From assembly GCA_022844165.1 (NCBI GenBank), contig JALHMH010000004.1, positions 96,001 to 160,000 of the forward strand: DNA of 64,000 bases, given 5' to 3'. Made by a program: the position numbers and the translations under genes. Source of the stretch: Lysobacterales bacterium. Its GTDB lineage: Bacteria > Pseudomonadota > Gammaproteobacteria > Xanthomonadales > SZUA-5. The notes under the pieces were generated by a model. That model had not been told where the DNA came from and searched no databases. It saw only the letters and a list, made by a program, of their open reading frames with translations. Below, piece by piece: positions 1,668 to 6,396 of the stretch (the stretch's first letter is position 1; every line of letters starts with the position of its first letter).

Positions 1668-2432
1668 ATGATGAGTCCCTATGGGCGTGCGCTTCAGGCC
1701 GAGATACTGAAATTGAGAAACACGTTAGCCTTGCGCTTGACTCTGATTGCACCCTTGGTTGTGGTGGGTCTGGTGACTGTGCAATGGCTGATGCAAGGTC
1801 GCTCGCCAGTACCGAGTGATGCACTGCCAGCGCGTGTATGGGCAGATTTTGCGGGCGCCGTTCTGGGCATTTTCGTGATACTGATGTTGCCGCTTTACGT
1901 GACCCTGCAGTCGGCGCTGCTGGCGCAACTGGAGCACCAGGACCGGCAATGGAAACACCTTTTGGCATTGCCGCTGCCGCGTTCGAGCTACTTCGTTGCG
2001 AAGCTGATGGCGCTGGCCCTGCTGGTGGCGCTCAGCATGTTGGTGTTGACAGTGTTGATTCCCGTTGTAGGCAGCCTCTTGCATCTGCGGGCATCGATAC
2101 CCATCGCAGGCTGGCCAGACCTGATCGACATCGCGCGTTCGCTTGGTCGGGTGTACTTATGTGCGGCGCTGCTCATCGTGTTGCAGGCATGCATCGCACT
2201 TTATTGGAAGAGCTTTACCGTAGCGGTTTCGATCGGAATGAGTGCAACGGTGATGGGTTTCATCATTGGTCAATCAAGCGAATTTGGCCCGTGGTTTCCG
2301 TGGACGATGCCCATCCAACCTCTGACGCGGCATCCTGCGCCGGAGCAAGTCATGCTGATCAGCAGCCTCGCCGCGGTGCTCATGGCCATTCTGGCTGCCT
2401 ATGAGTTCGAGCGCCGCGAGTTTTTCGATTGA
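1668..2432 (+). CDS. ABC-2 type permease (LanE/LanG-like)
   Basis: About 6 hydrophobic segments; AEILKLRNT and EHQDRQWKHLLALP motifs typical of lantibiotic/bacitracin-type permeases; follows the ATPase. Confidence 0.85.
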   Translation: MMSPYGRALQAEILKLRNTLALRLTLIAPLVVVGLVTVQWLMQGRSPVPSDALPARVWADFAGAVLGIFVILMLPLYVTLQSALLAQLEHQDRQWKHLLALPLPRSSYFVAKLMALALLVALSMLVLTVLIPVVGSLLHLRASIPIAGWPDLIDIARSLGRVYLCAALLIVLQACIALYWKSFTVAVSIGMSATVMGFIIGQSSEFGPWFPWTMPIQPLTRHPAPEQVMLISSLAAVLMAILAAYEFERREFFD

Positions 2433-2456
2433 TCGAACCGGGGCCGCAGGTATGAT
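2429..2456 (+). promoter_or_regulatory. Putative sigma-70 promoter for the small SEC-C gene
   Basis: TTGATC-16 nt-TATGAT; followed by hairpin CTGCCC/GGGCAG (2461-2478) and RBS GGAG (2485-2488). Confidence 0.45.
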
Positions 2457-2495
2457 CGCGCTGCCCATCGTCGGGCAGTTGGCTGGAGCATTGCC

Positions 2496-2735
2496 ATGAA
2501 TACCGAATTTAAAGATCAGGCGAGCTTTTGAGGTCACGAGCAAACGCCGCAAAGGATTCCCGTCTGAAACCCAGGTGAAGCGTGGACCGCGCTTCGTTCA
2601 CATCGACAAAGAACTGCTGGAGAAGCTCGGTCGGAATGACCCGTGCCCGTGCGGTTCCGGGAGGTTGTTTCAAACGCTGTTGTCTGATCAGCGGTAGCTT
2701 TTGATGGCGTCAATCGCCAAGACTATGTCCGTTAA
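2496..2735 (+). CDS. SEC-C zinc-motif small protein (78 aa) split across four segments by three putative programmed +1 frameshifts
   Basis: Joined product [78 protein letters not shown]; shift sites AGC TTT TGA (2523-2531), TTG TTT C (2665-2671), AGC TTT TGA (2696-2704). Confidence 0.75.
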
Positions 2736-2739
2736 CGGG

Positions 2740-2772
2740 AGGACCGCGATCGGAAGCGATCGCGGTCCTTTT
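2740..2772 (+). terminator. Rho-independent terminator
   Basis: Perfect stem AGGACCGCGATCG-GAAG-CGATCGCGGTCCT followed by a short T run, just after TAA 2733-2735 and between convergent genes. Confidence 0.8.
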
Positions 2773-3167
2773 CACGCGATCTGGCGCAACCAGTCTTGCA
2801 GGTTGTAGTAATTACTGACTCGGCTGATTTTCCCGTTGTCGATGTCAAAAAACGCGCCACCGGGCAACCGATACTGCTGGCCGTTTGCAGCCGGCAGACC
2901 TACGTCTGTGGTCAAATATTGACCGATCACGACGTATTCCGCCGCAGCATGTTTGCCATCGTCGGCGGCGAGGATACGAATATCTGTCAAGTGCTCCAGA
3001 TAGCTCACGCGCATTCGCTGCAAAAAGTCCGCGAATGCGGCCCGGCCGATTTCTCGTGCGCCCTGGTTCAGATCGTGGGCAACGTTGTCAGCCAGGAGAT
3101 CGAGCATGCCTTGCCAATCGGCGCGATTGAATGCTTCGTAGTAAACCGCAATCAGTGCTGCTGACAA
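2772..3167 (-). CDS. SnoaL/NTF2-like ketosteroid isomerase-related protein
   Basis: YYEAFNRADWQGMLDLL, VAHDLNQG, GQQYRLPGGAFF, RVSNYYN; TTG start. Confidence 0.85.
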   Translation of the reverse strand: MSAALIAVYYEAFNRADWQGMLDLLADNVAHDLNQGAREIGRAAFADFLQRMRVSYLEHLTDIRILAADDGKHAAAEYVVIGQYLTTDVGLPAANGQQYRLPGGAFFDIDNGKISRVSNYYNLQDWLRQIA

Positions 3168-3182
3168 TTCGACCTCTTGCTG

Positions 3183-4121
3183 TTAGAACGCGTAGCCAAA
3201 CTCCTCCAAGAATCGTGCCTTGAACTGAGTCAAGTCGAATCGTTGGTTCTGCGTGCCGGCGTGTTCTATCTTGATGGCGCCCATCAATGAGGCAATTCGG
3301 CCGGTCGTTTCGTAGTCGAAATCGTTCATCAGGCCATAAATGAGCCCGGCACGATAGGCGTCGCCGCAGCCGGTGGGGTCGAGTACCTGCTGTGCACGGG
3401 CCGACGGAATGTCAATGACACCGTCGCGCGTGTGCCATAGCGAACCTTCGCCACCGCGGGTCACGATGTAGGCGCTGACCTTCGATGCAATCTGAGCGGG
3501 CGACCAGCCGGTGCGTTCGGTCAGCAGTTGCGACTCGTAGTCGTTAACCGACACGTACGTGGCCTGCTCAATGAAGGCGCGGAACTCCTCGCCATTGAAC
3601 AGTGGCAGCGCCTGGCCAGGATCGAAGATGAAAGGAATGCCCATCGATTTGAACTCGGCGGCATGCTGCAGCATGGCATCGCGGTTGTCCGGCGCCACGA
3701 TACCGAATGCCGCACCGCGCACATCCTTGACGTGCGCGCCGTGGCTTTGCGTCATCGCCCCGGGATGAAACGCCGTGATCTGGTTGTCGTCCAAATCGGT
3801 CGTGATGTATGCCTGCGCGGTGTAGTGGTCTGGCAATTCGCGCACGCAGCGCAGATCGACGCCCATGGCCTCGAAGTGTTGTCGATACGGCTCGAAATCG
3901 CGACCCACAGAACCAAAAGGCACCGGATGACCGCCGAGGAGCTTTAAGTTGTAGCTGATGTTGCCAGCGCACCCGCCAAACTCGCGGCGCAGTTTCGGTA
4001 CATAGAAGGCAACGCTGAGCATGTGCACTTTATCGGCCAGGATGTGGTTTTTGAAGCGATCCTCGAACACCATGATGGTGTCGTACGCGAGCGAACCGCA
4101 GATCAGGGCTTGTTTGGACAT
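3183..4121 (-). CDS. PfkB family carbohydrate/adenosine kinase
   Basis: ICGSLAYDTIM, FGGCAGNI, DPTGCGDAYRAG PfkB signature; start reassigned to ATG 4121 (MSKQALI). Confidence 0.9.
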   Translation of the reverse strand: MSKQALICGSLAYDTIMVFEDRFKNHILADKVHMLSVAFYVPKLRREFGGCAGNISYNLKLLGGHPVPFGSVGRDFEPYRQHFEAMGVDLRCVRELPDHYTAQAYITTDLDDNQITAFHPGAMTQSHGAHVKDVRGAAFGIVAPDNRDAMLQHAAEFKSMGIPFIFDPGQALPLFNGEEFRAFIEQATYVSVNDYESQLLTERTGWSPAQIASKVSAYIVTRGGEGSLWHTRDGVIDIPSARAQQVLDPTGCGDAYRAGLIYGLMNDFDYETTGRIASLMGAIKIEHAGTQNQRFDLTQFKARFLEEFGYAF

Positions 4122-4353
4122 GGTTTTCTTGTTGAGCGTGATGCCGCGGAGACTAGCAGGGTTGCACCTTTGGCGACGTCCGGTGAGCGACGTACCGATG
4201 CCGCGAACGCCAAGGTAAGCCCTGCGTTTCATCCGGGAGGTCCGAATAACCTGCTGCGCGGGCTGATGGGATTTGCCAATGTTGCTCGCGCTTGTCGAAT
4301 CTACGTGAATCGCGCGTTATGATCGCGACATCTGCAAGCCGGGGATACGCTCG

Positions 4354-6396
4354 ATGTCGTGGGGACGTGAGACGGGCAAGGGGCTTCAAGTTTCACTGTT
4401 GGCGATGGTACTGGTCGCTTGCGGCGGCGGCGGCGGCCCGGAGACGGTCGGTACCGCACCGCCGGCGTCAGGCGCGCCTGCGCAGGGCTGTACTGGGTCG
4501 TGTGCAAATGCCCAGTCGTTCTTGACCGCGGCCGACGTGAACACCGTCATCGCTCAGGCGGTGGCCGAAGCGTCTGCTAACACCGCGCCGGCGACCATCG
4601 CCGTTGTTGATCGCGTCGGCAATGTTCTTGCCGTGTATCGGATGACCGGTGCGCGTGGGCTGGTCAACATCAATTCCAACCGCAATGTCGTCGGTGGCCT
4701 TGAGAATTTGAACGTGCCCAGTGAGCTCGCGGCTATCGCAAAAGCGATCACTGGTGCGTATTTGTCGAGCGAAGGCAATGCGTTCTCGACGCGCACTGCA
4801 AGCCAGATTGTCCAGGAGACTTTTAATCCGGGCGAAAGCAACGCGCCATCCGGACCGCTGTTTGGCGTCCAATTCAGTCAGCTCCCCTGCTCCGATTTCA
4901 TGCTGCGTTTCGCAACTGGGCAGAGTCCTGGCGTTGGGCCCAAACGCTCTCCGCTCGGTTTATCAGCAGATCCTGGCGGATTTCCGTTATACAAAAATGG
5001 TGTGCCGGTGGGTGGCGTTGGTGTAGCGGCCGACCCGCTCTACACACTCGATCGACGGATCCTGGATCGCGATCGCGATATCGACGAGCTGATCGGGCTC
5101 GCTGCAACATTCGGATATGGCGCGCCGGCAGATCGACGTGGAGACGTCATCACGGCGGATGGAAAAACGTTCCGCTACACCGATGTCGAATACGCAGATT
5201 TAGCCCGCGCACCCGGCAATGCCCCGGCATTGACGCCGGCCAATGGCAGCTTGATCAAGGTCCCGGCCTACGCCGATGCGGTCGTGCGCGAGGGCACGGC
5301 ATTTGGTCAGCCGGCCTCAGGCATCCGCCCGGCCGACAGCGATCTGGCCGATCTCGACGCCTTCATCCTGGTCGATGGAAACAACCAGAACCGGTTTGCG
5401 CCTCGCGCCGGAACGGAGCCCTCGGGCGCGCTCACTGCAAATGAAGCGCAGACGGTATTGCGCGAAGCACTGAAGGTCGCCAATCGCGCCCGCGCGCAAA
5501 TTCGTCAACCTTTCGGTAGCCAGGCACGAGTGAGTTTTTCGGTCGTCGATACGCGCGGCACGGTGCTCGCCCTGGCGCGTACTCGCGATGCGCCGGTGTT
5601 CGGTCTGGATGTGAGCTTGCAAAAGGCCCGTGCGGCAGCGTTTTTCTCCAGTGCGGCCGCGGCTGCCGATATCAGCAGTTTGCCGCCTGCGACATTTTTT
5701 GGCTCGGCGCTGAATGCTCAAGGCCTGCAACTCTCAACCGTGGGTAGCACGCCGCTTGTATCTTATGTCACGCGGACTCGCGAGTTCCTGGGATCGGCGA
5801 CGTCGTTGGGCGACGGTGCGATTGCTTACGCAAATCGTTCGGTCGGGAACCTCGCTCGGCCGTTCTATCCGGATGGCATCATCGGGTTGCCAGCGGGTCC
5901 TTTTTCCAACGAATTCGACTCGTGGAGTCCTTTTGACGTCGGTCTGCAACTGGACCTGGCATACAACCAGCTGGCGCTTCATGTAGCGCACTATGTGAAT
6001 CAACTGGGTGCGGCCATTTTTCTGGACGGGCGGCTATTGGCGCCAGCGCCCACCGCCCAGAATCCTGTGCCATTGCCCGACATCGGCTTTAGTTGTACCG
6101 GTCTGCCGCGAATTCCAAACGGTATTCAAATATTCCCTGGCAGCGTACCAATTTATCGTGGCGAGCAGCTTGTCGGTGCGATTGGCATCTCGGGCGATGG
6201 CGTTGACCAGGACGATATGATCGCGTTTCTGGGTCTGCACAATGCATCAGTCGCTTTGAACGGATCGATTGGTAACGCTCCCGGCGCTCGCCGGGCCGAT
6301 CAGCTGGCCCCGCGCGGCGCGCGCTTGCGCTACGTACAGTGTCCGCAAGCGCCATTCATCGATAGCAACGAGCAAAACGTCTGCGAGGGCAAATGA
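4354..6396 (+). CDS. Lipoprotein with tandem GlcG/HbpS-like heme-binding domains
   Basis: Lipobox LVAC-GGGG; two GlcG-like units (ATIAVVDRVGNVL...PGGFPLYKNGVPVGGVGV and SFSVVDTRGTVL...SLQKAR...FPGSVPIYRGEQLVGAIGISGDG). Confidence 0.75.
   Translation: MSWGRETGKGLQVSLLAMVLVACGGGGGPETVGTAPPASGAPAQGCTGSCANAQSFLTAADVNTVIAQAVAEASANTAPATIAVVDRVGNVLAVYRMTGARGLVNINSNRNVVGGLENLNVPSELAAIAKAITGAYLSSEGNAFSTRTASQIVQETFNPGESNAPSGPLFGVQFSQLPCSDFMLRFATGQSPGVGPKRSPLGLSADPGGFPLYKNGVPVGGVGVAADPLYTLDRRILDRDRDIDELIGLAATFGYGAPADRRGDVITADGKTFRYTDVEYADLARAPGNAPALTPANGSLIKVPAYADAVVREGTAFGQPASGIRPADSDLADLDAFILVDGNNQNRFAPRAGTEPSGALTANEAQTVLREALKVANRARAQIRQPFGSQARVSFSVVDTRGTVLALARTRDAPVFGLDVSLQKARAAAFFSSAAAAADISSLPPATFFGSALNAQGLQLSTVGSTPLVSYVTRTREFLGSATSLGDGAIAYANRSVGNLARPFYPDGIIGLPAGPFSNEFDSWSPFDVGLQLDLAYNQLALHVAHYVNQLGAAIFLDGRLLAPAPTAQNPVPLPDIGFSCTGLPRIPNGIQIFPGSVPIYRGEQLVGAIGISGDGVDQDDMIAFLGLHNASVALNGSIGNAPGARRADQLAPRGARLRYVQCPQAPFIDSNEQNVCEGK

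Follow-up and report, generated by a model that had tools for sequence, protein, structure and literature searches.

Near the start of the window, by which the whole analysed stretch of 64,000 nucleotides is meant, the forward strand carries a small gene whose coding sequence is broken into four pieces, each displaced by one base relative to the frame of the preceding one (Table 1). If each in-frame TTT with a T or C behind it is taken as a four-base step, pieces A to D join via three +1 steps into a predicted product of 78 amino acids (P0001). The GGAG, the ATG, the 11 opening codons and the three breaks at TTT_Y that had been described in a sequence-only reading of this DNA hold letter for letter, and GGAG or GAGG recurs at the same spacing across the homologous loci. 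The opening frame ends with AGC TTT, directly followed by the stop TGA. The frame of piece B, as had likewise been stated, offers no ATG, GTG or TTG ahead of its basic segment, the first such codon being GTG 2575. The frame of piece C ends in the same nonamer as the opening frame, AGCTTTTGA (2696-2704).

Table 1. Features of the small gene and its immediate surroundings, in positions of the window.
Feature	Position	Strand	Remarks
Promoter candidate, sigma-70-like (TTGATC-16 nt-TATGAT)	2429-2456	+	consensus match only
Ribosome-binding site GGAG	2485-2488	+	7 nt 5' of ATG 2496; read from sequence
Piece A, start ATG 2496 and N-terminal codons	2496-2528	+	11 codons in total, last codon TTT
Proposed shift site 1, TTT_T	2526-2529	+	0-frame stop TGA 2529-2531
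Piece B, basic core and first half of SEC-C (C-x-C)	2530-2670	+	last codon TTT 2668-2670
SEC-C zinc motif	2629-2683	+	interrupted by shift site 2; Pfam match once joined
Proposed shift site 2, TTT_C	2668-2671	+	0-frame codon CAA; 0-frame stop TAG 2695-2697
Piece C, K-x-C-C motif half and six codons	2672-2701	+	last codon TTT
Proposed shift site 3, TTT_T	2699-2702	+	0-frame stop TGA 2702-2704
Piece D, C-terminal codons and stop	2703-2735	+	10 codons (2703-2732), stop TAA 2733-2735
Terminator hairpin with UUUU end	2737-2772	.	between convergent genes; folding energy
SnoaL-like gene	2772-3167	-	converges on the small gene

The transcription signals proposed for the gene are also in place. Its sigma-70-like promoter, a candidate by consensus match only, agrees with the consensus at 9 of 12 positions, with one such site found compared to 0.2 expected in shuffled sequences. 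The strong terminator is represented by a hairpin of -28.8 kcal/mol (z -5.7) that was equalled in none of 200 shuffles; a simple terminator scan, which needs five T, missed this hairpin with its UUUU tail. The gene is present as a single copy in the genome of the window, and its neighbours there, encoding an S41 peptidase, an ABC transporter, the SnoaL-like protein and a PfkB protein, are unrelated.

The joined product contains a predicted SEC-C metal-binding motif (Pfam PF02810, gathering cut-off 20.4 bits), which P0001 matches with 38.2 bits over model positions 1-17 of 19, while the unshifted piece reaches 30.2 bits over positions 1-14. The four ligands, i. e. C-x-C and, about nine residues later, C-C or C-H, come to lie in one chain only after the +1 step at 2668-2671. 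They are spaced as in the SecA and YchJ motif peptides, which were the only matches to the motif in the PDB; the metal site is predicted from sequence.

Recurrence of the breaks and a common decoding rule

In a DNA search of 39 related genomes, the locus was found in nine besides the window's own, while two further matches corresponded to the tail of SecA only. One of the nine loci belongs to the same genus, five to other genera of the family and three to other families of the order. Three-frame translation and DNA alignment located break 1 in all eight loci with a visible start, break 2 in all nine and break 3 in six. In the other three (L008-L010), pieces C and D form one open frame, from which it follows that the C-terminal piece is part of the protein. 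The recurrence of the same breaks implies that they are not peculiar to this assembly.

A wider scan was based on the alignment of the 48-residue core (A1), with one genome per species. Relatives were confirmed in at least 587 of at least 591 species-genome stretches and in at least 583 of at least 599 metagenome stretches. The best 80 of the at least 591 show 75-90% identity and stem from Pseudomonadota (alpha, beta and gamma), Verrucomicrobiota, Planctomycetota, Acidobacteriota, Chloroflexota, Deinococcales, Methylomirabilota and others. Cultured carriers among them include Caulobacter vibrioides OR37, Massilia pinisoli, Chthoniobacter flavus Ellin428, Andreprevotia chitinilytica and Sphingomonas species. 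Within its class the gene is sparse, being carried by 4 of 301 evenly drawn genomes. It is neither phage- nor plasmid-borne: none of 50,697 phage records and two of 72,556 plasmid records contain it, the latter both representing one decayed copy from Manganitrophus (see below). The view of the sequence-only reading that a general sequencing error is unlikely agrees with the recurrence of the same breaks in other genera, families and phyla. The comparison with homologues that had been suggested likewise came out in favour of the gene, with breaks at the same places and uninterrupted homologues that match the joined product. P0001 aligns with the uninterrupted natural proteins P0012 (67% identity over 72 residues) and P0007 (72% over 69) with no gap across the three junctions.

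A single rule accounts for most of these genes. Reading begins at the start codon after the ribosome-binding site, and wherever an in-frame TTT precedes T or C, four bases are read in one step. Under the standard code, the full product was obtained in none of the 89 loci of set 1 and in none of the 160 whole-gene loci overall. The strict TTT+Y rule, by comparison, gave the complete conserved product of 76-86 amino acids in 82 of the 89 set-1 loci, while control four-base rules such as TTT+R succeeded in 0-2 loci, with the exception of TTT+N (63/89). The rule was then fixed and applied to set 2, derived from metagenomes, of whose 80 loci two duplicate loci of set 1; here, it worked for 58 of 74 whole-gene loci. 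A relaxed search, in which TTT_Y may also be read as a normal codon, solved 81 of 86 loci in set 1 and 68 of 74 in set 2, or 149 of 160 in total, with proteins of about 80 amino acids. These 149 loci contain 405 shifted and 8 unshifted TTT_Y. Six of the latter encode the Phe of a conserved G-F-P-S-E stretch in the form of TTT_CCN, and TTT_CCG serves as a shift site in some homologues and as an ordinary codon in others. The non-shift Phe codons of set 1 comprise 135 TTC, 24 TTT_R and no TTT_Y.

The 11 loci that resisted decoding have another codon at a site, lack a standard start or show an altered end. Two of them carry a Leu codon at site 3 (CTG_C in L016, CTT_C in L160) and three a different Phe codon at site 2 (TTC_A in L051, TTC_C in L074 and L136), with a break required in each case at the customary position. 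Further slippery codons, decay or assembly errors may lie behind these. L039 has lost site 1, and L057 and L156 display ATA in place of the ATG of other loci, spaced as usual from the ribosome-binding site; this ATA may be a weak non-standard start.

Across the 149 decoded loci, four sites can be distinguished. Site 1 marks the boundary between the N-terminal piece and the core (used in 126 loci), site 2 interrupts the SEC-C motif (136), site 3 lies eight codons past the Cys pair (49) and site 4 just before the final two or three codons (93); the window is devoid of site 4. Most genes contain three shifts (99 loci), followed by two (43), four (5) and one (2). The designation as a three-shift gene thus holds for the window, while the number is not fixed and varies from one to four among relatives. 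Exactly three shifts, as seen in two thirds of the genes, return the ribosome to its starting frame. Sites 3 and 4 tend toward mutual exclusion, as 38 loci use site 3 only, 82 site 4 only, 11 both and 18 neither. For every site, in-frame counterparts exist. In Verrucomicrobia-type genes, piece A is in frame with the core, which identifies it as the true N-terminus; site 2 is replaced by TTC_A or TTT_A, site 3 mostly by TAY and site 4 by TTC or other codons. Each site pattern occurs in several phyla and each phylum has several patterns. That sites are kept, lost and replaced in such a patchwork, yet most genes have three, speaks for selection in favour of these gates, beyond mere tolerance.

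Selection in each frame and possible modes of decoding

Selection was assessed by pooled Nei-Gojobori pN/pS over all pairs, an estimate that ignores shared ancestry and in which pS is near saturation. For piece B, the ratio amounts to 0.21 in the decoded frame compared to 2.0 and 1.8 in the wrong frames, for piece C to 0.43 compared to 1.4 and 0.97, and for piece D to 0.42 compared to 0.93 and 1.36. Judged by these ratios, purifying selection acts on pieces B, C and D, on each only in its own frame, while the amino acid sequence of piece A is not conserved (0.94). A contrasting picture is provided by the decayed copy on plasmid CP114562.1 of a Candidatus Manganitrophus MAG (L099:2960-3200), which is situated between genes for a tyrosine recombinase and a SIR2-family protein and at which no feature is annotated. 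In this copy, TCT stands for TTT at site 1, the motif is interrupted by an in-frame TGA, and its Cys pair is missing. The three signs of a pseudogene, i. e. relaxed selection, in-frame stops within the pieces and loss of key residues, are thus all found in L099 and are all absent from the small gene of the window.

Taken together, the locus most likely (with a probability of roughly 0.85) represents a real gene for a basic protein of about 78 amino acids with one SEC-C knuckle, which would be made only via serial +1 ribosomal frameshifting. The comparison strongly supports the serial-frameshift gene postulated from the sequence, given the recurring breaks at TTT_Y and the matching uninterrupted homologues. 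Conserved positions, sites that permit re-pairing and selection in each frame, as expected of a programmed +1 frameshift gene, are all found on this comparative level.

Translation would start at ATG 2496, and the ribosome would move forward by one base at each UUU_Y (2526, 2668 and 2699). Most likely, while the A site fills slowly, the P-site tRNA-Phe(GAA) leaves UUU and pairs again with the overlapping UUY, the 0-frame codon at this slow A site being a stop or, in relatives, CGA or CAA. The suggestion that all shifts fall on UUU codons where tRNA-Phe can re-pair extends far beyond the window, as each of the 405 inferred shifts is located at TTT_T or TTT_C. Because the base after TTT is always a pyrimidine, the +1 codon again encodes Phe, which is the signature of re-pairing by P-site tRNA-Phe. 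Ribosomes that do not slip would terminate immediately or shortly after the site. Each gate probably lets only some of the ribosomes pass, and the yield of full protein would then equal the product of two to four gate efficiencies, which would render the protein scarce and its synthesis steeply dependent on the decoding state.

A different fate was met by the proposed dependence on a stop codon and RF2, since the stop is often replaced by CGA, CAA or CAG. The 0-frame codon after TTT is a stop if the pyrimidine is T, and CGA, CAA, CAG or CCG if it is C. At site 1, CGA (37/73) is found more often than TGA (25/73); site 2 mostly has CAA (59/74), and site 3 has CGA (19/34) or TGA (15/34). With CGA or CAA so often in its place, the 0-frame stop appears dispensable and a by-product of the next amino acid. 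After C sites, the first 0-frame stop is reached sooner (medians of 6, 13 and 10 codons for sites 1-3) than the next stop after T sites (26, 37 and 36 codons); this is only suggestive of compensation, as shared ancestry is ignored.

A conserved stimulator was not detected, with a Shine-Dalgarno-like 4-mer upstream of the site in only 14/73, 32/74, 3/34 and 8/43 cases. Elsewhere in the same genomes TTT_Y is an ordinary sequence that accounts for 11.4% (216 long flanking ORFs) and 11.8% of Phe codons. Other genes show no clear avoidance of TTT_CGA (6 seen, 8.1 expected) or TTT_CAA (16 seen, 15.3 expected), and hence a general high-efficiency shifting can be discounted. Bare UUU_Y sites shift at low levels, so that three of them in series could give very little protein. 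The lack of a Shine-Dalgarno-like stimulator, the commonness of TTT_Y and the dual use of TTT_CCG together argue for partly efficient gates, and the multiplicative yield would then be very low. Ribosomal slippage, partial efficiency and regulatory use are what we infer from this body of comparative data. In its part on such sites, a published account lists UUU_Ynn as +1 shift-prone in bacteria, even without a stop codon (PMC5009743).

Alternatively, a dedicated trans-acting factor, such as a quadruplet-reading tRNA or a special modification of tRNA-Phe, could read UUUY in one step. A four-base anticodon would also explain the pyrimidine after UUU at every shift and is compatible with the missing cis stimulator. 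This reading is nevertheless very improbable. The genome of the window (99.97% complete) encodes 47 tRNAs, among them a single tRNA-Phe(GAA) with a normal seven-base loop and none whose anticodon could read UUUY as four bases. TTT_Y is moreover common in ordinary genes, to which an efficient quadruplet reader would do damage, and, given that homologues occur across many phyla, the factor would have to be spread just as widely. The sole four-base call by ARAGORN (G000 contig C9:2045-2141), a 97-nt "tRNA" with a weak fold, many G-U pairs and the anticodon ttgc, does not match UUUY and probably represents a false call. The assembly lacks tRNA-Ala(UGC) and tRNA-Ile(GAU), a common gap where rRNA operons remain unassembled.

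It is also highly unlikely that only short products matter, i. e. a leader peptide, a piece ending after site 2 or a product of 40 amino acids from GTG 2575, with the remainder persisting as a conserved relic. Unshifted ribosomes must indeed make shortened peptides, and many ORF calls of 51-64 amino acids are held in databases. Purifying selection, however, acts on pieces C and D in their own frames, the metal site is complete only once the Cys-Cys half past site 2 is added, the pieces are contiguous in many lineages, and the leader sequence is not conserved.

A correction at the RNA level, by which transcriptional slippage or editing would drop one base per T run to allow for normal reading thereafter, would fit the location of every site within a short T run. 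These runs are merely three or four bases long (three in TTT_C), while known productive transcriptional slippage uses much longer homopolymers; that the fourth base must be T or C points to tRNA-Phe pairing anew with a Phe codon and not to polymerase slippage on TTTC, which leaves this option extremely unlikely.

A sequencing or assembly error or a recent pseudogene, for which the error-prone nature of homopolymer runs and the 59-contig assembly behind the window might be cited, has a practically negligible probability and is refuted by sequence comparison as far as such data can do so, as the same breaks appear in 149 decoded loci, which stem from separate assemblies of metagenomes and of genomes (some of them isolates), selection acts in every frame, and a Logan contig, albeit possibly from the sample behind the window's assembly, shows no difference to the window over 2478-2728. 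The sequencing runs that hold the stretch are two DNA runs of one study, with no RNA run listed.

Character of the protein and its genomic setting

With the C-terminus of SecA, YchJ and YecA, the small protein shares the same knuckle of about 20 residues (Cys-x-Cys ... Cys-Cys/His), yet nothing besides. The NCBIfam models for YchJ and YecA reach at best 36.5 bits compared to a cut-off of 158, with the motif alone aligning, and neither NCBIfam nor PADLOC yielded a match beyond the motif. No named family corresponds to the conserved basic core towards the N-terminus or to the C-terminal tail. An AlphaFold2 model of the uninterrupted homologue P0012 (120 rows) has a mean pLDDT of 61.8 and consists mostly of coil. 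The protein is thus predicted to be mostly disordered outside the knuckle, as expected of a small basic partner of a larger machine.

In the protein database, the small gene is represented by 2012 clusters of ORF calls, mostly fragments of 51-64 amino acids that end at a shift site, and the Atlas holds only clusters of the same shortened SEC-C ORF calls. The shortened calls (P0002-P0121) bear names such as "nucleic acid-binding protein", "YecA (UPF0149)", "YchJ", "SEC-C metal-binding domain-containing protein" and, once, "ribosomal protein S21", while some copies are unannotated. As far as seen, these names derive from the SEC-C motif alone.

No universal neighbour accompanies the gene, while a few families recur in the fetched flanks. 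In sets 1 and 2, respectively, rtcB was found at 9/89 and 10/80 loci, SPFH/Band_7 genes at 5/89 and 7/80, Ro60/TROVE at 3/89 and 5/80, and a protein of 290-309 amino acids at 4/89 and 4/80; at least one of the four was present at 16/89 and 19/80 loci. All 49 locus-family matches lie on the strand of the small gene. RtcB occurs in two subtypes (51-79% and about 30% identical to one another) and its gene abuts the small gene in several loci; in the genome of the window, rtcB is located on another contig than the small gene. The protein of 290-309 amino acids, which had no Pfam, NCBIfam or PADLOC match, is encoded between rtcB and the small gene, or beside the latter, on the same strand (L015:1571-2443, L100:1980-2909 and six more loci). 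In L174, the small gene and rtcB flank a HEPN/AbiV-like gene (3634-4449), and Ro60 is encoded upstream; RNA-repair and RNA-cleaving genes stand together in this cluster. A predicted complex of RtcB (A3) with the small protein (A2) received a score of 0.05, which permits no call either way.

These neighbours suggest an Rtc/Rsr RNA-repair setting. A survey of RNA-repair gene neighbourhoods is said to have been provided by Burroughs and Aravind in 2016. Tentatively, the recurrent RtcB, Ro60 and SPFH genes on the same strand could mean that the protein serves the repair of RNA or of the translation apparatus, an assignment that is somewhat short of an even chance. The role of a multi-gate translational sensor, which had been put forward from the sequence, is a plausible possibility. 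Rather doubtful, at present, is the combination of both ideas, according to which the gene would act as a meter of reading-frame fidelity. Full-length protein would arise only if several UUU_Y gates together saw an increase in +1 slippage of tRNA-Phe, for example, upon A-site starvation or through damaged or under-modified tRNA or damaged ribosomes, and the output would scale with the slip rate raised to a power of about two to four. By acting on the translation apparatus together with the products of the RtcB/Ro60 genes, the protein would then close a feedback loop, much like that of RF2 for termination.

Relation to known frameshifting systems

To our knowledge, obligatory +1 frameshifting in bacterial cellular genes is confined to very few cases, above all prfB, with one site each. 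Like prfB, the small gene is situated on a bacterial chromosome and has a short leader followed by an obligatory +1 shift, for which the P-site tRNA would re-pair on xUU_U; at sites 1 and 3 of the window, even the 0-frame UGA is shared. A minority of prfB genes have UUU_U instead of CUU_U, as noted in the prfB passages of PMC5009743. In contrast to prfB with its one site, there are two to four sites here, the stop is dispensable and often replaced by CGA, CAA or CAG, a conserved Shine-Dalgarno-like stimulator is lacking, and the product is not a release factor. The prfB-type combination of a 0-frame stop with a Shine-Dalgarno-like stimulator 3 nt upstream is hence not a general feature of its homologues.

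The same UUU_Ynn site is known from error sites of Escherichia coli and the YopN-TyeA fusion, which likewise involve +1 shifts with no need for a stop codon (PMC5009743). These are single low-level events that lead to an error product or a fusion isoform. The shifts of the small gene are, in contrast, obligatory, serial and conserved across phyla. PA-X of influenza A virus uses UCC_UUU_CGU, which is nearly identical to many site-1 contexts, with TCC_TTT_CGA in 12 and TGC_TTT_CGA in 32 of 127. According to the PA-X part of the same source, no stimulator is evident there either and the PA-X level is very low (PMC5009743). The difference is that a eukaryotic virus employs one site for a minor alternative product and not for its sole product. 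Several +1 shifts per gene at one recurring codon type are found, as outlined in the relevant part of PMC5009743, in Euplotes and in mitochondria (ten shifts in Perkinsus cox1). They constitute genome-wide decoding peculiarities there. Here, it is one small gene in ordinary bacterial genomes in which TTT_Y is normal elsewhere.

The statement that no three-shift example had been described accordingly stands for bacteria in the literature searched and fails in general, given the multi-shift genes of Euplotes and mitochondria treated in that part of PMC5009743. Within this literature, nothing linked a SEC-C protein to frameshifting and no multi-site bacterial case was encountered; SecC or SEC-C is absent from the main texts of the Atkins 2016 review and the GeneTack paper. 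Both this family and the presence of three or four obligatory +1 sites in one bacterial gene thus appear to be undescribed in the literature searched.

Gene finders miss the full gene, and databases hold its fragments of 50-64 amino acids. The small gene occurs in many phyla with up to four shift sites and the four-base signal only, and its homologues offer a natural, compact test object for the control of UUU_Y slippage. They likewise lend themselves to testing whether serial gates may act as an ultrasensitive switch and whether reading-frame errors may be linked to RNA repair.
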